This document shows positions 6,774 to 57,535 of a stretch of 64,000 bases of DNA, piece after piece. Source of the DNA: Escherichia phage JSE. The stretch's first letter is position 1, and each line of letters starts with the position of its first letter. The notes below the pieces were generated by a model. It was not told the DNA's origin. It saw nothing but the letters and a program-made list of their open reading frames with translations, and made no database searches. The translations under genes and the position numbers were made by a program. The stretch lies in sequence record EU863408; one strand, written 5' to 3'.

Positions 6774-8165
6774 TCAAATATAGTCTACTCGATACCGCGC
6801 ACGGGTAACACCAACATATAATAACTGCATTGCCAATTCAAAGTCAACATTGTCTGTACACATGCAAGGAGTATACAGGAACACGCGGTCTACGCTGATC
6901 CCTTGTGACTTATGAATGGTGCAAGCTGGTAATGCTTTTACATTCAAGAACATACGCTTCATCGTCCAGAATGAATCCCAATCTGGTTTAAATTTTGGAT
7001 TCTCTTTCTTCATTTCGCGATATTGTCCGGCGACCGTATTCAGATAGATAGAGAAAATGTTCTTCTGACGTTGTTCTGTCAGAATGTTGATTTCTACTAA
7101 ATCCGGTTTATCTGTAGTGATTCCGACTGCATCTAAACCGACTTTCTGATTTAGGATCTCTTTGTCTTCGTCATCATCGACGCTTTCCACTTTCAGAGTA
7201 TATCCTAAAACTGGTTGCGGATCTACCCCCGTACAACGTAATGTAAATTCGCGCGGTATAACCTCTTTAACTCGGATCATCTCACCATTGTTAAAAATAA
7301 CATTAGGAATCTTCTTCCCGCGTTCATCTCGCAGATATTCGATCAATGGTTCCTGAGTAACCAGAATTTCATCTACAATCACTGGTTCATCGGTGTTATA
7401 AACGCGCTTACGGACAATTTCATTGAGTTTTTCGACGCTCTTGTTAGTGTAGGCCAGAATACGGTTTTCTAGAAGGTCTTCCGGCGTTTTAACGGTTTCG
7501 AAATAATGCTTCATAAACTCCGGCAGAGTTGAGCTATGGAATACACCCTCGTTACCGCACTGCTTTTCGAATACCCATTTACCATTACGGACAGCGGTCG
7601 CCACATCAATTATTGGCGCATTAGATCGTTTAATCTCTGTAAGTTCTACATTCTGAAACCTTTCATCCGTGAAGAAAGGAGAGATCGACGTTGCACCGCT
7701 CGGATCAACTGGTCGTAACTGGTGCGGATCGCCAACTGCAATAATAACAATTCGACCGTTGATACTCTTCATGAGAATATCAAATAGTTTCTTATCGACC
7801 ATACTCGCTTCATCAACAATGATGATCTGAACATCATCTAGCTTAGGAGTATCTTTTTGCTCAAATACTTGAGTATCTTCATAGTTGGTCGGGTTTAGTC
7901 GCAGTAGTGCATGTAAAGTAAATGCTTGACGACCTACCGCTTTACTCAAAACTTTTTTAGCCTGGTGGGTAGGCGTTGCCAAAACCACACCAGTTACACC
8001 ACGGCGGACCATTTCCTGAACAATGAATTTCATCATTGCGGTTTTACCAGTACCCGCCGCACCACGGACAGTTGTATGCTTCTTTTGTTCAATGCGTTTC
8101 ATTAGAACATCAAAAGCATGTTTTTGCCCGTCTGTTAACATATCGAAAGTTAATACTCTGCTCAT
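6774..8165 (-). CDS. dda: Dda DNA helicase (SF1B)
   Basis: 463 aa; Walker A GAAGTGKT; near-colinear with recalled T4 Dda (SNAPIIDVATAVRNGKW, YVGVTR). Confidence 0.9.
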   Translation of the reverse strand: MSRVLTFDMLTDGQKHAFDVLMKRIEQKKHTTVRGAAGTGKTAMMKFIVQEMVRRGVTGVVLATPTHQAKKVLSKAVGRQAFTLHALLRLNPTNYEDTQVFEQKDTPKLDDVQIIIVDEASMVDKKLFDILMKSINGRIVIIAVGDPHQLRPVDPSGATSISPFFTDERFQNVELTEIKRSNAPIIDVATAVRNGKWVFEKQCGNEGVFHSSTLPEFMKHYFETVKTPEDLLENRILAYTNKSVEKLNEIVRKRVYNTDEPVIVDEILVTQEPLIEYLRDERGKKIPNVIFNNGEMIRVKEVIPREFTLRCTGVDPQPVLGYTLKVESVDDDEDKEILNQKVGLDAVGITTDKPDLVEINILTEQRQKNIFSIYLNTVAGQYREMKKENPKFKPDWDSFWTMKRMFLNVKALPACTIHKSQGISVDRVFLYTPCMCTDNVDFELAMQLLYVGVTRARYRVDYI

Positions 8166-8479
8166 TATCCTAAAATCCTCACCTTGCGAACACAGATAGT
8201 ATTGAGTTCTCGCCGTACCCGTTCTTTTTCATATTCAGGAATTTTATATTCGATACCATCCCGAACAATTTCAGAAGACCGGATTATGCCAAATTTTCGT
8301 TTAGGTACAACCTTGTATTTCGGTTCACCCGCCAATAGACTCTCACAATAATCTATCTGATCACACATTGACGCTAACGCAGCATCATGTGTTTCGCAAG
8401 TTAGGACGCGACCCTTCGCGTCCACTGAGTATTGAAAGAATCCGTCTTTATCACGATAACATACAGCAAATACATGCAT
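8165..8479 (-). CDS. hypothetical protein (dda.1 position)
   Basis: 104-aa ORF, ATGA-coupled to dda. Confidence 0.5.
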   Translation of the reverse strand: MHVFAVCYRDKDGFFQYSVDAKGRVLTCETHDAALASMCDQIDYCESLLAGEPKYKVVPKRKFGIIRSSEIVRDGIEYKIPEYEKERVRRELNTICVRKVRILG

Positions 8480-9234
8480 TATAAACCTACCTTCGCTTTC
8501 ATCAATTCAATCCACGACGCATCAATCGGAAGCCCGTATTTCACGCGTTCTTTTTGTGCTGGCGTTAAGTTCTCATACTTAGAAAGAGATTCAATCAAAA
8601 CGCTGGTATATTTTAGCACGACTTCGGTATTGTTTGCAATAGCCTTAAGTTTTTCTTCTTTCTTGTTGATTTCGCTAAGGGCTTGCTTGAGATCTGCAAT
8701 TTTCTGATAACGTTCTTCCATACGGAAGAGAGTATTTTTAATAGCTCGCTCGACTGCCTCTGCTTTCTCCGGTTCGTTGTGCTTTTTGTGGCGCTCGATT
8801 GCCAATTTCTTTTCTTCGATTGCTATTTCCTGATTTTTGATGCGATTCTCGTTAAGTTCGATCCACTCTATGTACTTCGCACGTAGGGCAATTTCATCAT
8901 CAGAAAGTTTACCGTTAGTTCCTAGTTCCTGGATCTCTTTAAGAGATTCGATAGTGTGATTGCCACGGAAAGAATTGTATTTCAGTTTAACCGGAATTAC
9001 ATTGCCATCAACATATCCCAGATTGCAATCAATGCGCTCTAAGGAGAGTCCATCATCACCTTCACCGAAAGCCTCACCGGAATAGGCGCAATGAGTCTGT
9101 CGGTAAATGTTACGCACAGTGACTAAGCTCATAGAGAAGTCTTTGTTGCGACGTGAAGCACCAGCCATGATAGAGTTCAGACGGAAAACAACCAGCGCCA
9201 ATTCTTCGTTAGATTTAAAAGCAAACAGTTTCAT
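8479..9234 (-). CDS. srd: Srd-like protein (putative sigma-factor decoy)
   Basis: 251 aa; size and position downstream of dda as T4 srd; coiled-coil C-terminus; not verified by alignment. Confidence 0.5.
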   Translation of the reverse strand: MKLFAFKSNEELALVVFRLNSIMAGASRRNKDFSMSLVTVRNIYRQTHCAYSGEAFGEGDDGLSLERIDCNLGYVDGNVIPVKLKYNSFRGNHTIESLKEIQELGTNGKLSDDEIALRAKYIEWIELNENRIKNQEIAIEEKKLAIERHKKHNEPEKAEAVERAIKNTLFRMEERYQKIADLKQALSEINKKEEKLKAIANNTEVVLKYTSVLIESLSKYENLTPAQKERVKYGLPIDASWIELMKAKVGL

Positions 9235-9295: not shown

Positions 9296-9799
9296 TTAAA
9301 TTAAAGAAAATTTGTAAATCTCTATCAGATCGCCATTACACGCGTAAACTTCCTCGATCTCATCAAGGATCATGGTCGTCCCTGTCTTGTATATGCATTC
9401 GCGCTCATCTGCCAACATAGCATACAAAGACAGTCGAGTAGTCGGATTGTCATACTCTTTAGACACCACTCGGTCAATAGCATGTTCGTAATAATTCATG
9501 CAAGGCTTGGTAGGTTTTATTGCAATAATCTTTCCTGTTGCATAAACATCTGTTGCAAAGTCCTCTGCTGTTGATTGCAGTGGCGTAAAGCTCATAGGAC
9601 GCTCTACAACGAAAGAATCACCTACAATTAAGGTATCCAGCTTACGGCCTTCTCTTTTGCTCACACCGCGATACAAGGCTTCATGATGCACTAACCGCTC
9701 AGTCTTTTCAATCAATCCATTAAGGATCGACATATCGATATTTTCTTTAGAGTTCATCACTTCATCAATGATGTTAAGTTCTTCTGGTGTAAATTGCAT
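9296..9799 (-). CDS. ADP-ribosyltransferase, ModA/ModB-like
   Basis: track ORF 9296-9865; start at ATG 9797-9799; R-S-E signature (YRGVSKREG, SFTPLQST, ADERE); T4 mod position. Confidence 0.55.
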   Translation of the reverse strand: MQFTPEELNIIDEVMNSKENIDMSILNGLIEKTERLVHHEALYRGVSKREGRKLDTLIVGDSFVVERPMSFTPLQSTAEDFATDVYATGKIIAIKPTKPCMNYYEHAIDRVVSKEYDNPTTRLSLYAMLADERECIYKTGTTMILDEIEEVYACNGDLIEIYKFSLI

Positions 9800-9808
9800 A
9801 ATAAAAAA

Positions 9809-9832
9809 GCCTCCAATCTTTCGACGGGAGGC
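9809..9832 (-). promoter_or_regulatory. hairpin sequestering the Shine-Dalgarno of the Mod-like gene
   Basis: minus-strand RNA GCCUCC-12nt-GGAGGC then U-run; the 3' arm contains the GGAGG about 10 nt before the ATG. Confidence 0.4.
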
Positions 9833-9880
9833 ATAATAAAACCATTGATTGAGTTTGTCAATCACAAAGTGTATGTGATC

Positions 9881-9917: not shown

Positions 9918-10838
9918 ATGAACTATAAACGTATTTATGATAACCTGATTGAACGTGCTAAGACTAGAAATATCGACGGATACACAGAAAAGCATCACAT
10001 CATACCACGTTGTATGGATGGAAGCGATGACCCCACCAACCTAGTAAGACTTACACCAGAAGAACATTATATGGCACATCTTTTGTTAGTTAAGATATAT
10101 CCAGATAATAATAAACTGATATATGCCGCTAACATGATGTGCGTTTCTTGTCATGGACAAAGACAAACAAATAAGCGTCACGGATGGTTGCGTAGAAAAA
10201 CGGCGGAAGCGCATAGTAAAAGAATACGCGATAGAATGGAGAACGATCCAGAATATAGATCTAAGGTTTCGGAATGGGCTAGAAAAATGGGTAAAGCCAT
10301 GAAAGGCGTTAAGCGAGGACCGGAATTTAGCAGAAAGTTGGCAGAAAGAAACAGAAATACCGTGATGAGAGAAGAAACTAAACGTAAGATCGGGGAAGCC
10401 AACAAAGGAAAGAAACGTACAGAAGAATATAAAAGAAAACATAGTGAAAGGTATAAAGGTGAAGGTAATCCGATGTATGGTAAACGAGGAAAGGACCATC
10501 CGGCATATGGTACTAAACCGTGGAACAACCAAACATCATTTGTTGAGCAGAAAGCATGGTGGCGGTTCGCTGGCATGTTTTATGACTGGTATCGGAGAGA
10601 TATTGACCGTGGAACACATAAACGCCACGGTCATAAGAGAATGTTGGATGAGTTAGGTTTCGTTGGTTGGCGAGAAAAAGAGCCAGCCGCAGCAAGACGA
10701 TCAATTGAGATGTTCGCTAAAGGCTGGAATCCTTATGAAGACCAAGAATGGTTAGATTATGTTAATACCCGCTTTCCAAACGACGATAGTTTTCCGCGTT
10801 CTTCAACATATACAAGACAAACAGATCCTTCGCAGTAA
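9918..10838 (+). CDS. free-standing HNH homing endonuclease with NUMOD3-type repeats
   Basis: 306 aa; HNH core EKHHIIPRCMDGSDDPTNLVRLTPEEHYMAH; repeated basic ETKRKIGEANKGK-type motifs; the only long plus-strand gene here. Confidence 0.8.
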   Translation: MNYKRIYDNLIERAKTRNIDGYTEKHHIIPRCMDGSDDPTNLVRLTPEEHYMAHLLLVKIYPDNNKLIYAANMMCVSCHGQRQTNKRHGWLRRKTAEAHSKRIRDRMENDPEYRSKVSEWARKMGKAMKGVKRGPEFSRKLAERNRNTVMREETKRKIGEANKGKKRTEEYKRKHSERYKGEGNPMYGKRGKDHPAYGTKPWNNQTSFVEQKAWWRFAGMFYDWYRRDIDRGTHKRHGHKRMLDELGFVGWREKEPAAARRSIEMFAKGWNPYEDQEWLDYVNTRFPNDDSFPRSSTYTRQTDPSQ

Positions 10839-49506: not shown

Positions 49507-49735
49507 ATTATATTTTATTCACGTCCATTTGTATAGTAGTGTTTGAATCGACCTTTGCTAAACTAGTTAAACATAGTAACCAATTCACCATCCCTTTCCA
49601 ATGATAACCCTTCCTCGTCTTAGACGGGTCTTCCGATTCGGTAGTAATTGAACACGCGAAAGTATGAGGAAGCCAAATAGTTGTGTTAATGCTAGTATTC
49701 TTTTACTTCTGGTATGCATCCCACGGTGACTAACA

Positions 49736-50491: not shown

Positions 50492-51088
50492 TTATTTGGT
50501 AGTACCGTCAATAAAATGTTTACGACACACAGAAACATATTTATCCTCTGCACCAACTTCTATTTGAGCACCATCGCGAATAACATTACCCTCTTTATCT
50601 ACACGAAGGACCATTGTTGCTTTCTTGCCACAATGACAAATACCCTTCATTTCGACCAGTTTATCAGCAAATGCCATTAATGCCGCAGATCCTTCAAATA
50701 GATTGCCCTGAAAGTCAGTGCGAAGGCCATAGCACAGTACAGGGATATTAGCATCATCAACAAGCGCACACAAGCCTAAAACATGCTCTTTAGTCATAAA
50801 TTGGGCTTCATCTACAAATACAGCATCAGGACGCCAGCGATCCGGTCTACGCTTACCTAACGATTCACGATAAACCAAATCGAAAAGATCATCCGATTTA
50901 GTGAAGGTGATCGCTGGGGCACTTAGGCCAATTCGGGAAACGACTTCACTTTCTGAATCTCGATTATCAATCGCTGGCTTAAGAATTAATACTCGCATAT
51001 CACGTTCTGTATAGTTATAAGCACTTTGTAACAGAGAAGTTGATTTGCCAGCGTTCATAGATGCATAGTAGAAATATAATTGCGCCAT
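50492..51088 (-). CDS. tk: thymidine kinase
   Basis: 198 aa; P-loop YYASMNAGKSTSLLQ; C-terminal zinc motif CHCGKKA...CRKH. Confidence 0.9.
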   Translation of the reverse strand: MAQLYFYYASMNAGKSTSLLQSAYNYTERDMRVLILKPAIDNRDSESEVVSRIGLSAPAITFTKSDDLFDLVYRESLGKRRPDRWRPDAVFVDEAQFMTKEHVLGLCALVDDANIPVLCYGLRTDFQGNLFEGSAALMAFADKLVEMKGICHCGKKATMVLRVDKEGNVIRDGAQIEVGAEDKYVSVCRKHFIDGTTK

Positions 51089-51381
51089 TAATTAATCTCC
51101 AAAAATCCAACAAGACCTAAACCGATATAAGTCCAGATACCAATAAAAAAGATGTTAATGCTCATGGCAAGGATAAACCCTTTCAGCGTTTTGGGATACC
51201 CGACCCAATATTCCCGACCATCTTCTAACCGGATCAGTTTATTGCCTTGAGAGTCCATATCAACTACAACATGTTTATTTCGAGATTGCAATAGATATTG
51301 TTTTACAATCTCTACACCCGCCATAATAACAATAACGAAAATAAAAGTCCACACAACAAGATTAATGATAGTCTCAAGCAT
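51088..51381 (-). CDS. small membrane protein
   Basis: 97 aa; two hydrophobic segments; ATGA-coupled to tk. Confidence 0.5.
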   Translation of the reverse strand: MLETIINLVVWTFIFVIVIMAGVEIVKQYLLQSRNKHVVVDMDSQGNKLIRLEDGREYWVGYPKTLKGFILAMSINIFFIGIWTYIGLGLVGFLEIN

Positions 51382-51616
51382 TTTCTATCACCTCCACCCA
51401 ATCAGGTGTTTCCTGAAAGACTCCTTCTCCTTCATGATGGTCGCAACCTTTATTGCTACAATACATCCACCAATCCCACATTCCCCACGGTAAACGCTGC
51501 ATATCGTCGTTACAGCAAGTGAAGATAATAGGCCAACCACATCTAACACATCGGCAGTTTTCTTTCATGTGAGCGGTATTCGGCTTCTTCATAGATGACT
51601 CCAATATAATCGACAT
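51374..51616 (-). CDS. Cys-rich small protein
   Basis: 80 aa; CRCVRCGW...CC...C..C.HHE. Confidence 0.45.
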   Translation of the reverse strand: MSIILESSMKKPNTAHMKENCRCVRCGWPIIFTCCNDDMQRLPWGMWDWWMYCSNKGCDHHEGEGVFQETPDWVEVIENA

Positions 51617-51819
51617 TTACATTTAGGGCAATGCGGTTCTTTAATATAATACCCGTCTGTCTTTGGAACACTAACAGGAGCGGTTTTTATATTGTATTCA
51701 GTGAAACAACGAAAACAAGTTACGTTTTCTACAGACTGACGTTTCACCCAATCACCGGAATATAGATCATTTTTATTTGTCATATTCAACCACCACAATG
51801 TTAATGTCTGGAGTAGCAA
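51589..51819 (-). CDS. zinc-ribbon small protein
   Basis: 76 aa; CFRC...CPKCKC. Confidence 0.45.
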   Translation of the reverse strand: MLLQTLTLWWLNMTNKNDLYSGDWVKRQSVENVTCFRCFTEYNIKTAPVSVPKTDGYYIKEPHCPKCKCRLYWSHL

Positions 51820-52228
51820 TATTAATGATCTCTTCTACACATTCCCACTCAAGGCCACCGATACCGCAACCGATTTTAGGAATATAGAAAGGCTGTATAG
51901 CACCTTCAAAAACATCATTGATAGTCTCAAATCCTTTCAGGATAGCACCATATTCAGCATTTGGACCCGGTCGGAATTGGGTATATAGATTCACCCCGCA
52001 CCAGTTATAACCATTAACTTGATGCGTCCAGACACTAAACCCACCCAGCTTTTCTACCTTACCGCGAGAAGTTTGCTTGTCAATCTCTAACGCTTGCGGG
52101 AACTCTTTCGCGATCTTTGCAGCAATACCAGCACCCATAGTATGAAAACAATTACAACCATGAATTAAATGACCGTTTCCTTGTTTAAACAGGGCGATGA
52201 GATCGCCCTTTACAGTATCAATAATCAT
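51773..52228 (-). CDS. macro-domain-like protein (putative ADP-ribose binding/processing)
   Basis: 151 aa; signature HGCNCFHTMGAGIAAKIAKEFPQA typical of one macro-domain family; SD GAGAGG. Confidence 0.55.
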   Translation of the reverse strand: MIIDTVKGDLIALFKQGNGHLIHGCNCFHTMGAGIAAKIAKEFPQALEIDKQTSRGKVEKLGGFSVWTHQVNGYNWCGVNLYTQFRPGPNAEYGAILKGFETINDVFEGAIQPFYIPKIGCGIGGLEWECVEEIINIATPDINIVVVEYDK

Positions 52229-52243
52229 AATATAAACCTCTCA

Positions 52244-52603
52244 TTAGTCACGGGAAGACAACCCAGCCATAAAACGGCTTAACAGTGTGTCGCGATAAGC
52301 AAAGCATAATTGCTTATCAGGGGCAGTATCACAAAGGTTGCGTTTTGTTTTAGCAAAGCTGGCAATACTCAGATCCCACGCTCGATTTTTTCGTTTTTCG
52401 TCTCGACCTTGTTTGTATGCTTCGTCGAGTTCAAGTGCGATAAAATCACTACACATGTTATCATCATCACAGAAAGTTTTAATGATCTTTTTGTTGATCT
52501 CAAATCCTTTGTATTCGAACTTTGGATAAGGGCGCTCATTACTAGCAAGCGCACCAGCCGAGAACATCATAGCAATCATAGCAATTATTGTCAACTTTTT
52601 CAT
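52244..52603 (-). CDS. secreted protein (signal peptide)
   Basis: 119 aa; N-terminus MKKLTIIAMIAMMFSAGALA; several Cys. Confidence 0.5.
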   Translation of the reverse strand: MKKLTIIAMIAMMFSAGALASNERPYPKFEYKGFEINKKIIKTFCDDDNMCSDFIALELDEAYKQGRDEKRKNRAWDLSIASFAKTKRNLCDTAPDKQLCFAYRDTLLSRFMAGLSSRD

Positions 52604-52610
52604 ATATTCC

Positions 52611-53201
52611 TCAATAGCGTTTAGTCTTAAGAATGCCTTTACTCTTTAGATGGTTAGCCTTTTTTAGTACATCATCAGCATAACCTAACCCGGCTTTATA
52701 GTTCCATCCAGCATTGTAAGAAGCTAGCGCGAGTCGGATATTACCGTTTCGAACATCCAGCCAGTATGCTAACTCATCCATCGCGTAGAATGCAGAAACC
52801 TCGCGATTCATGATAAAGTTGATAGTCTGGCGATCACTCATTTTAACACCGCGCTTTGCATTTTTCGCTTTCACCGTTTTAAGGTAATTTTGAAATAATC
52901 CATAAGCATGATGATTTTTCTTTGGTGCTAAGTTTGCACCCGCGCTTGATTCTTGCCATGCGATACCCGCCAGGATGTGACCTAAACCCTTTCCGTTATA
53001 GCGAATATTCGGATGGTCCTTTTTCAACTTACCGCTTTTCTCGAATTGCTCGCCGTATTGATAGGCGAAATGTAAATTATCTAGTTGGTGTGCTGTAAAG
53101 TTGTCTATCGGCGCTTTTTTGATCGGTGCGCTAGTCGATGCGTGTGTAGCACCAACGGCTAGTGACAGACTCAATACTATCGCTTTTAGAACTTTTAACA
53201 T
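52611..53201 (-). CDS. lytic transglycosylase-like (SLT domain) with signal peptide
   Basis: 196 aa; signal peptide MLKVLKAIVLSLSLAVGATHA; SLT motifs AWQESS, GLFQ, YNAG. Confidence 0.6.
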   Translation of the reverse strand: MLKVLKAIVLSLSLAVGATHASTSAPIKKAPIDNFTAHQLDNLHFAYQYGEQFEKSGKLKKDHPNIRYNGKGLGHILAGIAWQESSAGANLAPKKNHHAYGLFQNYLKTVKAKNAKRGVKMSDRQTINFIMNREVSAFYAMDELAYWLDVRNGNIRLALASYNAGWNYKAGLGYADDVLKKANHLKSKGILKTKRY

Positions 53202-53235
53202 TAATTTCTCCTGTTTGGCTTAACTTTCTGATTCC

Positions 53236-53264
53236 ATAATATAGCCCTATCACCAGAAAGTCAA
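53236..53264 (-). promoter_or_regulatory. sigma70-type promoter
   Basis: minus strand AATGCTTGACT (TTGACT), 17-nt spacer, TATTAT. Confidence 0.45.
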
Positions 53265-53287
53265 GCATTATTTTTAACCAATTTCCA

Positions 53288-53710
53288 TTATTGGTCTACC
53301 TTCAAAACAACCGCCGACATTTTACCCGCCAGTCGTTTTGGATTCTCTATAATCATTCGGCAGCATAGACCGTGATATGGCTTACCCTCTTCGATTAGAT
53401 CTACTGTCATCCCGATCCACATGTTACCGTCAGTAATTTCTAATCGATTCGGTCGGTCTTCCATTTTCAGGAAGTCGAAGATCTCCGGCAAACGAGTTTC
53501 TATCTTATTGAATAGTTCCATTGTCTTATGTTCATCGATATGACGATCGGTTAGACGGTCGATCATATGCGGACTAAAGCGAATGAAAATATACTCACCG
53601 TAACCATCATTCAAGCACTTTTCTTTGATCTGCGCATTGGTTTTGCGCATTTCGGTTTCGAAGAATCTACGCAGCTTACTACGGCGAACATGTACGTTAA
53701 TTGTTTCCAT
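53288..53710 (-). CDS. regB: RegB endoribonuclease
   Basis: track ORF 53288-53752; start METINVHVRRSKLRR at 53708-53710; RLEITDGNMWIGMTV and CRMIIENPKRLAGK match T4 RegB. Confidence 0.75.
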   Translation of the reverse strand: METINVHVRRSKLRRFFETEMRKTNAQIKEKCLNDGYGEYIFIRFSPHMIDRLTDRHIDEHKTMELFNKIETRLPEIFDFLKMEDRPNRLEITDGNMWIGMTVDLIEEGKPYHGLCCRMIIENPKRLAGKMSAVVLKVDQ

Positions 53711-53714
53711 TTTA

Positions 53715-54050
53715 TTATCCTTTCTTAAACAAATTGCGAATCCAGTATACAAACGGGATTTCTTTAAACTTGAATTTCTCTATAGTTAATTCTTTAGTAG
53801 CAAGATGAATACCATAAGCATCATGTGTAACTATATGCCATTTTCTATAGCCCAAATGTGAACAACCGTCTGGATCTAGGTTAATAAGAGTTTCTCGCTC
53901 ACTAGGATTATTTTTCCACAATTTTGTAATAGGATCGCACATAATTCGACCTAGCGTACCATGAATAATCTCACAACGGTAAAGTTTTCCAGCAGTGAGA
54001 TAGGCGCACCCGTCATAGTCGGTATAAACAAACACTTCTTTAACACTCAT
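53715..54050 (-). CDS. hypothetical protein (tandem paralog family C)
   Basis: track ORF 53715-54110; start at ATG 54048-54050 (SD AAAGGAG); DPDGCSHLGYRKW module shared with next two ORFs. Confidence 0.45.
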   Translation of the reverse strand: MSVKEVFVYTDYDGCAYLTAGKLYRCEIIHGTLGRIMCDPITKLWKNNPSERETLINLDPDGCSHLGYRKWHIVTHDAYGIHLATKELTIEKFKFKEIPFVYWIRNLFKKG

Positions 54051-54081
54051 TTTAATACTCCTTTGTTGTTTCGATGGGGGT

Positions 54082-54110
54082 ATATTACTACCCCCGATCA
54101 TGTGTGTCAA
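54082..54110 (-). promoter_or_regulatory. sigma70-type early promoter (PeSL)
   Basis: minus strand TTGACA, 17-nt spacer with GGGGGUA/UACCCCC stem, TAATAT. Confidence 0.55.
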
Positions 54111-54354
54111 CTACTTTTTCAAGATTTTTTTTGATTGCATTCCAAAGACCTTTATTTCCAGGTTGTTTTGGTTCTTCGATCAGTGTCCATGTTCGACCGT
54201 CTAAGTGTGCACAATTTTTAAGGCAAATAAAAATCTGGTGTCCCTTATCAGCACGGATATAACCACTATTCGCAAATCTTTCATGTGGTGTATATTCATA
54301 CAGTGTATTAGGTGTAATATACTTGCGGTTACTATAAGGTGTCATCACATACAT
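54088..54354 (-). CDS. hypothetical protein (family C)
   Basis: track ORF 54088-54372; ...KNCAHLDGRTWTLIEEP module. Confidence 0.45.
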   Translation of the reverse strand: MYVMTPYSNRKYITPNTLYEYTPHERFANSGYIRADKGHQIFICLKNCAHLDGRTWTLIEEPKQPGNKGLWNAIKKNLEKVVDTHDRG

Positions 54355-54548
54355 CATGGTACTAACTCCCAACGATCACCGCGAAGATGAGAACATCCAC
54401 CATCAAGAAGTATCGTAATACGATAACCTATATCATCTTTGATGTAACCGATTGTCGGTGGATTTTCGTCGTCTCGTGCCGGGGTAAAATCATACATCTT
54501 TCCGGGCGTAATATCTTGTCCTTTATTGCTATTGGTATAAACTTGCAT
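54354..54548 (-). CDS. hypothetical protein (family C)
   Basis: 64 aa; ...DGGCSHLRGDRWELVP module. Confidence 0.45.
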   Translation of the reverse strand: MQVYTNSNKGQDITPGKMYDFTPARDDENPPTIGYIKDDIGYRITILLDGGCSHLRGDRWELVP

Positions 54549-54569
54549 TTTCTTAATCTCCTATATTAA

Positions 54570-55268
54570 CTAACCACGGGTATAGTGTTCCAGAACAACG
54601 GTCAGATGAATATATTCTAATAGATCTTTCCAAAAGTCAACATCTGGTTCTTCCGGCATACCGTTTTTCTTTGCCTCTTCACGCGCGAGTTTAACACGCT
54701 CGTAGAGATCTTTCAATTCTTCCCGCACATTATCAAAGGTTCTTTCTCCTAACTTACACGCTAAAATAGAAGAACGTCGCGCGAGCGGGAATTGTAGATC
54801 ACCTGTCTGATAGATTTCAAGTAGCTGATAACCAACACGCAGAGCATGAGAAAGATCTTTCCAGTTACTGAAATACTTTTCAGATTTGGCTACCTGCTTT
54901 TTGAGATAGCCAGACAAACCCCACATACCAACATGATAGAATTTATCTCGATGTGTTCGGATGTATTCCCATTCTCTGGAGGATTCAACCAACATGTTAC
55001 TAGGCGCGTGCACCATATCAATAGCGCCGATATCGCCTTTACATGCCAGATTGATAAACCGTTTTAGACTGAACATATTAACGTCAATATCGTCTTTGGT
55101 GTTCTTGATCCCTTGACCGCTAGTGCTTTGATCATAGTGTTCTTTCATCGATCCTAAGATAATTTCTTTCGCAGTCGGAACAAAGATACCACGATAATCT
55201 TTATCGGAATTTTCAGTATCAAGGCCGTATAAGTGAGATCCGAAGACCATTTTAACCATTGTATGCAT
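54570..55268 (-). CDS. predicted nucleotidyltransferase (pol-beta superfamily)
   Basis: 232 aa; N-terminal GSHLYGLDTENSDKDYRGIF fits the G[SG]...D.D signature. Confidence 0.55.
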   Translation of the reverse strand: MHTMVKMVFGSHLYGLDTENSDKDYRGIFVPTAKEIILGSMKEHYDQSTSGQGIKNTKDDIDVNMFSLKRFINLACKGDIGAIDMVHAPSNMLVESSREWEYIRTHRDKFYHVGMWGLSGYLKKQVAKSEKYFSNWKDLSHALRVGYQLLEIYQTGDLQFPLARRSSILACKLGERTFDNVREELKDLYERVKLAREEAKKNGMPEEPDVDFWKDLLEYIHLTVVLEHYTRG

Positions 55269-55281
55269 AATTAAACCCTCA

Positions 55282-55812
55282 TTAGTATTTTACGTTACGT
55301 CGAACGCCTTTTCGAATCTGACAAATAGCAGACGGTGAAACATTATATTTTCTTGCAAGTTCTACACCCTTCATATGGGGAGAAGATAAAATCTCTTCCA
55401 CTTGGTCGTCGGTAAGTTTTGCGTTTCCGTGGTTCTCTCCCCAATTTTTGTTTAATCCTTCTTCCTTCGCATGAACAAGATTTCGGGTATCTGTCGTCCA
55501 TTCAAGATTATAAAGGTCATAGTTTTGTTTGTTTCCATCCTTATGATTAACTACACGGTAGTTATTTGGATTCGGAATAAACGCAACCGCCATAGCTTTA
55601 TGCATGTTCACGGTTTTTCTAAATCCATCCGGCTTATAACATACTGTAAATTTAGAATAACCAGTTTTACCATAAACACTAATATAATTTCCGGTCTCCG
55701 TATTTCTAACCCTACCATGAGAGCTAATCTCAAATTGAGTGTAGGGCAACAGCGCATCAATCACTTTCCATTCTTCGACAGGATGGTCATCACAATATCT
55801 TTTAATCATCAT
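55282..55812 (-). CDS. free-standing HNH homing endonuclease (NUMOD4/HNH_3 with C-terminal HTH)
   Basis: 176 aa; EEWKVIDALLPYTQFEISSHGRVRN; HKAMAVAFIPNPNNYRVVNHKDGNKQNYDLYNLEWTT; directly after terminator 55822-55852. Confidence 0.8.
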   Translation of the reverse strand: MMIKRYCDDHPVEEWKVIDALLPYTQFEISSHGRVRNTETGNYISVYGKTGYSKFTVCYKPDGFRKTVNMHKAMAVAFIPNPNNYRVVNHKDGNKQNYDLYNLEWTTDTRNLVHAKEEGLNKNWGENHGNAKLTDDQVEEILSSPHMKGVELARKYNVSPSAICQIRKGVRRNVKY

Positions 55813-55821
55813 ATCACCTCA

Positions 55822-55852
55822 TAAAAATAAAGCCAACCCTTTCGGATTGGCT
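55822..55852 (-). terminator. intrinsic terminator after GrcA-like gene
   Basis: minus RNA AGCCAAUCC-GAAA-GGGUUGGCU then UUAUUUUUAU. Confidence 0.6.
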
Positions 55853-55859
55853 TAAAAAT

Positions 55860-56276
55860 TTACATTGCTTCCGTAAAGGTGCGCGAAATAACGTCACGTT
55901 GTTGGTCTGGAGTCAGACTATTGAATCTTACGGCATATCCGCTAACGCGAATGGTTAGTTGCGGATACTTATCAGGATTAGCAACCGCATCGAGAAGAAG
56001 ATCGCGACTCATAACATTGATATTAGCGTGCTGACCACCTTCGACAACCGGAGCACCATTATCTACAATCACCGGACGGAAGCTAGTTGTGTGCAGTGCC
56101 AGAGAATCGACGTCTTCTGCGGTGATCACATGGTCTTCTGCGAAAGTTTTACTAACAATTACTTTAGCGCCGATCAGTGCTTTCGGTTCGGATACCAGAA
56201 TCATAGGCGCGAAGTGTCCACCAATAATAGTACCTTTATGCTCACCTTTCATGATTTGAATTGCTTTAAATTCCAT
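55860..56276 (-). CDS. autonomous glycyl radical cofactor (GrcA/YfiD-like)
   Basis: 138 aa; C-terminus [33 protein letters not shown] near-identical to E. coli GrcA. Confidence 0.8.
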
Positions 56277-56959: not shown

Positions 56960-57535
56960 TTATTTTGGATCTGGGAAATTCAATAGAGCATATTCTCCAT
57001 AAAATTTCCTAGCTGCATTATCATAAGCGATTGCAGCTTCGATTTCTGTGTCATATTGTCCAAGAACATGTCTTTGTAGGTTGACCATTATACTAGCTCT
57101 CCATTTCTTACGCAAATCCTTCCTGTTACACTTACTAACACCCTTATACACACTAGAAAACTTTTTAGACTTCTTCTTTCTATTATGTTGATTTTGCGCG
57201 TCGGTTGCCTCCCTAAGATTTGGAGGATTGTTATTAGCAGGATTACCGTCAATATGATCAATTAATCTAACTTGCGTCCCATGTTCTAGAAACCAAACAA
57301 CCCTATGCACGAATAGATGAACTCTAGGAAGACCGTCATCTCTACTATGCCAAAATCTAAGATGACCATCTTTATTTGTTCTGACTTTAACTAAATCGCC
57401 GTGTTTATATCTACTCCCTAATGGTCGTCCTTTGATAGCTTTACTATCGACTCTATAATATAAGATACCCTCTATATGAGCATATCTAAGTTTTATCTCG
57501 TTTTGTAGGGATTCATCCCAATATTTAAAAGCCAT
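56960..57535 (-). CDS. free-standing HNH homing endonuclease with AP2-type domain (paralog of 3019-3582)
   Basis: 191 aa; HRVVWFLEHGTQVRLIDHIDGNPANNNPPNLREAT; also similar to 3019-3582 at nucleotide level. Confidence 0.8.
   Translation of the reverse strand: MAFKYWDESLQNEIKLRYAHIEGILYYRVDSKAIKGRPLGSRYKHGDLVKVRTNKDGHLRFWHSRDDGLPRVHLFVHRVVWFLEHGTQVRLIDHIDGNPANNNPPNLREATDAQNQHNRKKKSKKFSSVYKGVSKCNRKDLRKKWRASIMVNLQRHVLGQYDTEIEAAIAYDNAARKFYGEYALLNFPDPK

Follow-up and report, generated by a model that had tools for sequence, protein, structure and literature searches.

In a T4 transposon library exposed to the host toxin-antitoxin defense DarTG2, the gene tk.4 was the single hit, and a clean tk.4 knockout made T4 sensitive to DarTG2 in plaque assays, from which the gene was named adfM (HIDEN-SEQ preprint, doi 10.1101/2025.11.20.689424). 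A distant phage macrodomain, gp104 (AdfM) of PhiKZ, strips DarT2-made ADP-ribose from DNA in vitro (Cell Rep 2026, PMC13309987). Characterized relatives of a second T4 gene, nrdC.11, are the RlaP proteins of P. fluorescens and P. aeruginosa, which add one or two nucleoside monophosphates to RNA 3′-OH ends, favor the broken end of a cleaved-tRNA mimic, and are inactive on DNA and protein; they have been proposed to act ahead of ligation, restoring the nucleotides that RloC and other “smart” ribotoxins cut off, and T4 NrdC.11 was assigned to RlaP cluster 5 (2025 preprint, PMC12776372). Here, we analyzed a 64,000-nucleotide stretch of Escherichia phage JSE (EU863408; hereafter, the window), in which a macrodomain gene and a nucleotidyltransferase (NTase) gene are the orthologs of tk.4/adfM and nrdC.11, and for which the best overall explanation, and in our judgment a probable one, is that they are two independent accessory genes in the early region of a T4-like Krischvirus. 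The gene identities are themselves little new: annotations of the RB49 group have used the T4 names tk.4 and nrdC.11 from 2007 on, and a function or a family has now been published for the T4 orthologs. The points newly worth reporting are a clade-wide lysine-to-glutamine exchange in T4-type AdfM, an NrdC.11 that is free of the T4-type insert, and a recombined patch in the macrodomain gene.

An initial annotation had recognized the two folds from short peptide strings. Both strings occur in the translations of the two open reading frames (ORFs), whose coordinates are as first given (Table 1), and profile searches (Pfam and PHROG for both ORFs, NCBIfam and PADLOC for the macrodomain) agree on the macro and nucleotidyltransferase folds. 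Each ORF is preceded by a good Shine-Dalgarno sequence (GAGG 7-8 nt before the ATG), has hundreds of homologs, and is under purifying selection; both are genuine genes and not chance ORFs. The macrodomain ORF matches Pfam Macro PF01661 (28.7 bits against a cutoff of 22, 1.3e-6; residues 22-135 on model positions 1-118) and PHROG 335 (1e-61), and its best NCBIfam and PADLOC matches are DarG models (7.9e-13 and 3.9e-14, respectively). The NCBIfam DarG model NF048014 scores 48.4 bits against an equivalog cutoff of 250 and is matched only at positions 2-141 of 338, so that the 151-residue protein fails the DarG equivalog test, and the C-terminal DarT-binding domain is not present in it. An AlphaFold2 (AF2) model built with 61 homologs is confident (predicted local distance difference test score [pLDDT] 96.5, predicted template modeling score [pTM] 0.91), and a Foldseek search with it returned 153 PDB matches at E <= 1e-3 with macrodomains on top, the nearest being human TARG1, yeast Poa1p, and DarG of T. 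aquaticus and M. tuberculosis (E ~1e-8 to 1e-9, template modeling [TM] scores 0.75-0.79). By structural and sequence neighbors alike, the protein belongs to the TARG1/DarG-like clade. T4 Tk.4 aligns with it at 44% identity over 150 of 151 residues (E = 9e-45), and the adjacency of vs and tk.4 is kept in the window, in T4, and in many T-even phages; the ORF is thus a full-length ortholog of T4 tk.4/adfM, with its active-site residues intact and with a ratio of nonsynonymous to synonymous substitution rates (dN/dS) of 0.14-0.36, indicative of purifying selection. By tblastn, the family was found in 2730 of 50,697 phage records, and the same search also gave a macro match in the ICP1 family. The anti-DarT factor AdfB of ICP1 was considered as a macrodomain precedent and rejected, since the source paper has AdfB binding DarT and describes no macrodomain.

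By extension from the T4 knockout, the Krischvirus protein would confer protection against DarTG2, and a Tk.4-type macrodomain would most likely serve to shield replicating phage DNA from this defense. The route would be removal by the macrodomain of the ADP-ribose that DarT2 places on thymidines of single-stranded DNA. Because the protein has no DarT-binding domain, it would act on the modification and not on the toxin. Such removal would have to proceed without the lysine used by DarG, TARG1, and PhiKZ AdfM, given that the whole T4-type clade has a glutamine there. In TARG1 (K84) and DarG (K80), the catalytic lysine comes after a conserved threonine, in “ITK” and “PTK,” respectively. In three alignments (single-sequence HMMER and family profile, both to 5m3i and 4j5r, and MAFFT with the reference sequences), the residue of the window protein that falls there is Gln84, within the motif N80-L-Y82-T83-Q84. 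Among 120 homologs, position 84 is glutamine in 118, lysine in one, and arginine in one; N26, D50, N80, and Y82 are present in all 120, T83 in 118, and H23 in 116, and position 60 is lysine or arginine in 119. The YTQ motif is also found in T4 Tk.4. N26 is the equivalent of N22 in DarG and N23 in PhiKZ AdfM, for which an active-site role has been described (PMC13309987). The local register of the PhiKZ gp104 alignment is uncertain, BLASTP and hhalign putting its K78 two residues off the TARG1/DarG register; under either register, no conserved basic residue is found in strand 80-86 of the window protein across the 120 homologs. With a clade-wide glutamine and a strand in which no basic residue is conserved, T4-type AdfM is a distinct subfamily, and any glycohydrolase activity that it has would not depend on the lysine of TARG1 and DarG. 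We found no published comment on this difference in the literature.

The glutamine also bears on whether the T4-type macrodomain is an enzyme of this kind at all. It may be noncatalytic or differently targeted, binding ADP-ribosylated DNA, DarT2, or an ADP-ribose-derived signal, or hydrolyzing another linkage such as that in ADP-ribosylated RNA. The replacement of the lysine in 118 of 120 clade members fits this proposal, the T4 evidence is genetic only, and the anti-DarT factors AdfA and AdfB work by binding. Yet the ADP-ribose-binding loops and the active-site asparagine are invariant, and H23, D50, K60, N80, and Y82 are strictly conserved, which suggests an active site and more than a surface for binding; binding alone would presumably leave the modified template blocked; and T4 remains subject to strong restriction by the mRNA ADP-ribosyltransferase (ART) CmdT even though it carries tk.4. 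The paper on CmdTAC reports no macrodomain test. On balance we regard a noncatalytic or retargeted macrodomain as unlikely. A metabolic role is less probable still, in which tk.4 would encode a Poa1p-type ADP-ribose-1″-phosphate phosphatase or an O-acetyl-ADP-ribose deacetylase that clears NAD-derived by-products and plays no part in defense. The RefSeq label of tk.4 (“phosphatase,” with an A1pp motif), the JGI labels of homologs (“O-acetyl-ADP-ribose deacetylase”), and the match to Poa1p by profile (8e-13) and by fold (1.9e-8) all fit such a role, but DarG and TARG1 score equally well or better, the phenotype of the T4 knockout is confined to DarTG2, and for many macrodomains A1pp phosphatase activity can be seen in vitro although it is not what they do in the cell.

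The central part of the macrodomain gene has a history of its own. Relative to a Krischvirus-like metagenomic contig (L005, positions 7532-7987), a patch of the gene has 67% nucleotide identity, whereas its flanks have 98-100% and the neighboring genes 97-100%. Codons 1-50 differ by one synonymous change, whereas codons 51-112 have a synonymous divergence (dS) of 2.46, which is saturated, and a dN/dS of 0.12. This pattern is that of a segmental allele replacement inside the gene and indicates recombination with an old allele. Positive selection was rejected as its cause, given the low dN/dS and the saturated dS. The YTQ motif is intact in the L005 allele. A further difference of about 2 kb lies in the same contig, where extra DNA (L005 10184-12156, against ~49553-49578 in the window) just past rI.-1 carries a 715-amino-acid ORF with a faint Ig_2 match and marks an indel hotspot bordering the tk-rI block.

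The NTase ORF matches Pfam RlaP PF10127 (54.1 bits against a cutoff of 23, 2.3e-14; residues 7-191 on model positions 24-198 of 249), PHROG 388 “nucleotidyltransferase” (2e-79), and T4 NrdC.11 (E = 6e-51); it is the nrdC.11 ortholog and an RlaP-family Pol-beta nucleotidyltransferase. Pol-beta NTases carry an hG[GS]...DxD pattern. In a 30-sequence family alignment, the GS motif (G10, S11) and the three catalytic aspartates (D22, D24, D84) are invariant, in agreement with the three strictly conserved catalytic aspartates of RlaP (PMC12776372). The AF2 model (pLDDT 91.8) has a beta/alpha core at residues 1-96 and helices at residues 98-230, which puts an NTase domain at the N terminus and a helical domain at the C terminus, as in the RlaP plan. 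Foldseek with this model returned the Pol-beta NTases Hailong HalB, ANT(4′), LinB, and AAD(9), at TM scores of about 0.4 and 11-15% identity, and a PDB sequence search gave no meaningful match, the PDB copy searched being one without the PfRlaP structure. HalB, the top structural match, was set aside as a functional clue because the similarity is that of generic Pol-beta enzymes. The gene is under strong purifying selection, with a dN/dS of 0.02-0.06 among Krischviruses and of 0.19 against P0122, a metagenomic homolog with 57% identity.

At 232 residues, the Krischvirus NrdC.11 is a compact variant. Among its best 120 homologs, 118 are 302-344 residues long, 72 of them exactly 336, the T4 length, and the only short forms are the Krischvirus protein and P0122 (234 residues). 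What these two lack, and the other 118 homologs have, is a central module of ~105 residues with the conserved motifs KYGxKGSR and YGERAR...GID at its borders. The Pfam RlaP model is collinear on the short proteins (residues 6-221 of P0122 onto model positions 23-229 of 249), whereas T4-type NrdC.11 either fits the model in its N-terminal half only or needs an insertion of about 100 residues. RlaPs of ~250 residues from a Bacillus phage and a Mycobacterium phage are also without the big module but retain a short basic linker. A neighbor-joining tree places the short forms as the sister group of all long forms, so that a gain in the T-even branch and a loss in Krischvirus both fit. By tblastn, the family occurs in 1619 phage records; in 57, the short form is present at 95% identity or more (>=95%), and the remainder are all below 60% identity. 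That an internal deletion left the short protein as a decaying relic of a T4-type nrdC.11 might be argued from the lost ~105 residues, among which the KYGxKGSR and YGER motifs are highly conserved, and from the length of nearly all other homologs. Its reading frame and catalytic residues are all intact, however, the dN/dS values are low among Krischviruses and against a homolog of the same architecture, the AF2 model is compact and confident, the Pfam model is collinear with the short form, and in the tree the short proteins branch beside the long ones, as their sister, and not from among them. Decay is therefore scarcely credible, and because of the low dN/dS among Krischviruses and against P0122, we conclude that the short NTase is not a pseudogene.

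As a compact RlaP, Krischvirus NrdC.11 would share the RNA 3′-end nucleotidyltransferase activity of this family, an activity that would extend to it from the bacterial enzymes. Since Phi1, a close relative, encodes pseT and rnlA about 75 kb from nrdC.11, RNA-repair partners exist in this phage group outside the window. The NTase could instead serve another role, such as production of an oligonucleotide or nucleotide signal (e.g., a mimic of the oligo-dA of Hailong HalB that silences that defense) or modification of phage DNA or of a small molecule. HalB and the aminoglycoside and lincosamide NTases are indeed the best PDB neighbors, the compact form is without the basic linker of canonical RlaPs, and T4 nrdC.11 has no known RNA-repair phenotype. 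These structural matches are nonetheless weak and reflect a shared Pol-beta and helical-domain plan, whereas sequence profiles place the protein specifically in RlaP and the characterized RlaPs act on RNA only, and we consider such a role rather unlikely. The Phi1 record (L004, 114300-164270) also encodes 30.3 (the T4 AdfN, a NADAR anti-DarTG1 factor), alt, and a second small “polynucleotide kinase” ORF. Because Phi1 encodes 30.3, alt, pseT, and rnlA, Krischviruses probably carry both anti-DarT enzymes together with the full tRNA-repair set outside the window.

The initial annotation had grouped the two genes as lying close together downstream of tk, and had joined them with a Mod-like ART as writer-type and eraser-type ADP-ribosylation enzymes and plausible counter-defense effectors. 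They do lie after tk in plus-strand coordinates, but both are on the minus strand and are upstream of tk in the direction of transcription; the distance from one to the other is 2.3 kb, a gap that holds six ORFs (three small paralogs, regB, vs.1, and vs). In T4, nrdC.11 is 4.5 kb beyond tk.4, across tk, rI, and mobD, whereas in the window it lies between vs.6 and regB. A promoter-like site falls between the NTase and macrodomain genes, and a strong terminator-like hairpin just upstream of the pair formed by an HNH endonuclease gene and the NTase gene, both recognized by consensus only. The distributions of the two families are unlike (2730 against 1619 phage records), and their biochemical contexts would differ, the one being removal of ADP-ribose from DNA and the other repair of RNA 3′ ends. 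On these grounds, a shared pathway finds no support, and we treat the macrodomain and the NTase as independent. Counter-defense is reasonable as a general idea, backed for the macrodomain by the T4 tk.4 knockout; a functional link between the two proteins is not supported.

The Mod-like ART is indeed an ART, with a match to PHROG 832 and to T4 ModB (33% identity, 1e-10) and ModA (23%, 2e-6); a Pfam search with ORF 9296-9865 gave no match. Its longest form, 9296-9865, opens with a GTG, and the span 9296-9799 given to it initially begins at an internal ATG. The gene adjoins srd (8479-9234), as in T4. Immediately beside it on the other side is an HNH/NUMOD3 homing endonuclease gene (9918-10838, plus strand), the sole plus-strand gene of that neighborhood. 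With an ART in the window, alt also present in Phi1, and a macrodomain that is a plausible ADP-ribose hydrolase, one might propose that the macrodomain reverses or tunes ADP-ribosylation by the phage’s own Mod-like or Alt enzymes. Alt and Mod enzymes, however, are arginine-specific protein ARTs that act on host proteins, whereas the substrates of TARG1/DarG-clade macrodomains are DNA thymidine-linked or acidic-residue-linked ADP-ribose. Arginine-linked ADP-ribose is removed by ARH-type hydrolases and is not known to be cleaved by macrodomains of the TARG1/DarG type. Moreover, the macrodomain and ART genes are 42 kb apart and are not colocalized in T4 either, and the sole phenotype of the T4 ortholog concerns host DarTG2 and not a phage ART. 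We therefore hold a writer/eraser pair to be very improbable; the co-presence of the two enzymes is a true description of gene content and not evidence of a system.

Several points weigh against the reading of the two genes as an anti-DarTG2 macrodomain and an RNA-repair NTase. With glutamine in place of the catalytic lysine of DarG K80 and TARG1 K84, the DarG glycohydrolase mechanism is not simply transferable to the window protein, and PhiKZ AdfM, for which there is biochemistry, shares just 26% identity with it, with the two-residue uncertainty in local register. The T4 tk.4 evidence is genetic, enzymatic removal being called just “likely” (doi 10.1101/2025.11.20.689424). For the NTase, the PDB structural neighbors are only generic Pol-beta enzymes at TM scores of about 0.4; the Krischvirus protein has neither the T4-type insert nor the short basic linker of outgroup RlaPs, so that its substrate binding may differ; the gene is not adjacent to RNA ligase or kinase genes; and T4 nrdC.11 is nonessential and deletable, with no phenotype in the published screens consulted. 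We speculate that T4-type AdfM could be a mechanistically distinct DNA ADP-ribosyl-glycohydrolase that acts without the TARG1/DarG lysine via H23, N26, D50, K/R60, N80, Y82, T83, and Q84, with the exchanged central region (residues ~51-112) tuning specificity for different DarT2-like toxins or ADP-ribosylated substrates, and that Krischvirus NrdC.11 could be a minimal RlaP still repairing ribotoxin-trimmed tRNA. This joint interpretation is tentative, and we consider it possible but doubtful as a whole.

The window is that of an RB49-like Krischvirus (Straboviridae), and the 6-kb stretch around both genes has 95-98% nucleotide identity to Whisky, vB_EcoM_011D4, phiS, KFS-EC, RB49, and Phi1, with 57 records in all. 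Every gene between about 49.7 and 57.5 kb is on the minus strand. In the order of transcription, these are vs.8, a 41-codon ORF, vs.6 (GrcA-like), an HNH homing endonuclease gene, the NTase gene, three small paralogous ORFs, regB, vs.1 (SLT-like), vs, the macrodomain gene, two ORFs with zinc-binding domains and one other, tk, rI, and rI.-1. The Phi1 RefSeq record uses the T4-style names tk.4 (“phosphatase”) and nrdC.11 (“nucleotidyltransferase”) for the two genes. The coordinates of the main features are given in Table 1.

Table 1. Coordinates of genes, residues, and sequence features in the window, with the basis for each
Feature	Position	Strand	Basis
Macrodomain gene (tk.4/adfM ortholog)	51773..52228	-	151 aa; Pfam/DarG profiles, T4 Tk.4 alignment, AF2 model
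Codon N26, equivalent to active-site Asn of DarG (N22) and PhiKZ AdfM (N23)	52151..52153	-	Alignments, 120/120 homologs
Codons Y82-T83-Q84, Gln84 at TARG1 K84/DarG K80 position	51977..51985	-	HMMER and MAFFT alignments, 120 homologs
Core of mosaic patch in macrodomain gene, relative to Krischvirus-like metagenomic contig	51882..52031	-	Nucleotide identity, dS
Nucleotidyltransferase gene (nrdC.11 ortholog)	54570..55268	-	232 aa; RlaP PF10127, PHROG 388, AF2 model
Catalytic core motif G10-S11 ... D22-x-D24	55197..55241	-	Invariant in 30-sequence family alignment
Third catalytic Asp, D84	55017..55019	-	Invariant in 30-sequence alignment
Junction, residues ~129-136, where ~105-aa T4-type module is missing	54861..54884	-	Alignments, length census, Pfam fit
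Mod-like ADP-ribosyltransferase	9296..9865	-	PHROG 832 “RNA polymerase ADP-ribosylase” 5.6e-21; adjoins srd
tk	50492-51088	-	
vs (valyl-tRNA synthetase modifier), upstream neighbor of macrodomain gene	52244..52603	-	PHROG 1256 1.8e-33
Sigma-70-like promoter match in regB-vs.1 gap	53236..53264	-	Consensus scan only, 10/12 matches
regB endoribonuclease, between macrodomain and NTase genes	53288..53710	-	Pfam REGB_T4 1.7e-48
HNH/NUMOD4 homing endonuclease directly upstream of nrdC.11	55282..55812	-	Pfam and PHROG matches
Terminator-like hairpin (10-bp stem and T-run) between vs.6/GrcA and the HNH-nrdC.11 pair	55830..55853	-	Consensus scan only

Among the relatives, Whisky, 011D4, phiS, and two metagenomic contigs (L003 and L005/L006) carry the HNH/NUMOD4 gene, which is missing from Phi1, RB49, and GEC-3S, whose matches have 91% coverage. 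For regB, an ATG start at 53710 agrees with Phi1, and the longest ORF opens with a TTG at 53752. A scan for MotA-box-like middle-promoter patterns gave one match against 1.9 expected by chance and is uninformative. The product of vs.6 (55860-56276, minus strand) resembles the autonomous glycyl-radical cofactor GrcA, with matches to Pfam Gly_radical (4.7e-15) and to TIGR04365 (3.9e-37, under the equivalog cutoff). The three tandem small ORFs between nrdC.11 and regB (53715-54110, 54088-54372, and 54354-54548, minus strand) form a local paralog family (PHROGs 6261/15978), for which a Pfam search gave no match. Between tk.4 and tk, where T4 has tk.1-tk.3, two overlapping small ORFs (51374-51616 and 51589-51819, minus strand) match PF23895 (5.6e-34) and PF23903 (1.8e-23), families of the “Phage zinc binding domain” that Pfam has defined only recently. 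Upstream of vs.8, at a place where Phi1 has its endolysin gene region, ORF 56960-57535 (minus strand) is a second homing-endonuclease-like gene, with an HNH_3 and an AP2 DNA-binding domain.

Dozens of Krischvirus records could have “phosphatase” and “hypothetical protein” replaced by “AdfM-type anti-DarTG2 macrodomain” and “RlaP-family RNA nucleotidyltransferase.” The lysine-to-glutamine exchange marks off T4-type AdfM from DarG2 and PhiKZ AdfM and offers a cheap, concrete mutagenesis target for studies of mechanism, and the insert-free NrdC.11 is a natural minimal phage RlaP for biochemistry. For host-range prediction in phage therapy, a genome with both tk.4 and 30.3/adfN would suggest a phage that resists DarTG of either type.

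Compared with the systems described so far, the window macrodomain protein is closest to T4 Tk.4 (AdfM), with which it shares length, domain content, the neighbor vs, the YTQ motif, and the conserved residues, although 56% of residues differ and T4 has tk.1-tk.3 between tk.4 and tk where the window has the two zinc-binding-domain proteins and one other. With the DarG2 macrodomain (PDB 5M3E, 5M3I) and TARG1 (4J5S), it has in common the macro subfold, the glycine-rich loops, and the active-site asparagine, but the catalytic lysine of both corresponds to Gln84 and D125 of TARG1 to a glycine, and DarG has the DarT-binding domain that the window protein is without. PhiKZ gp104 is likewise a stand-alone phage macrodomain that counters DarTG2 and is homologous to the window protein (hhalign probability 97%), yet it is highly divergent, retains the DarG-type lysine (K78), and enters the phage nucleus, a structure that has no counterpart in T4-like phages. 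T4 NrdC.11 is orthologous to the window NTase in its N- and C-terminal regions and differs in carrying the ~105-residue insert (336 against 232 residues) and in lying beyond tk, rI, and mobD. Both nrdC.11 genes are directly downstream of an HNH homing endonuclease gene (mobD in T4); the idea that nrdC.11 travels with a mobD-like endonuclease was rejected because the T4 and window endonucleases are unrelated (E = 1.2). The RlaPs of P. fluorescens and P. aeruginosa (PF10127; PMC12776372) have the same three aspartates, the same two-domain plan with a terminal helix, and a similar length (~230-250 residues), whereas other insert-free RlaPs carry the short basic linker that the window NTase is without, and the window NTase gene does not lie next to an RNA ligase gene.

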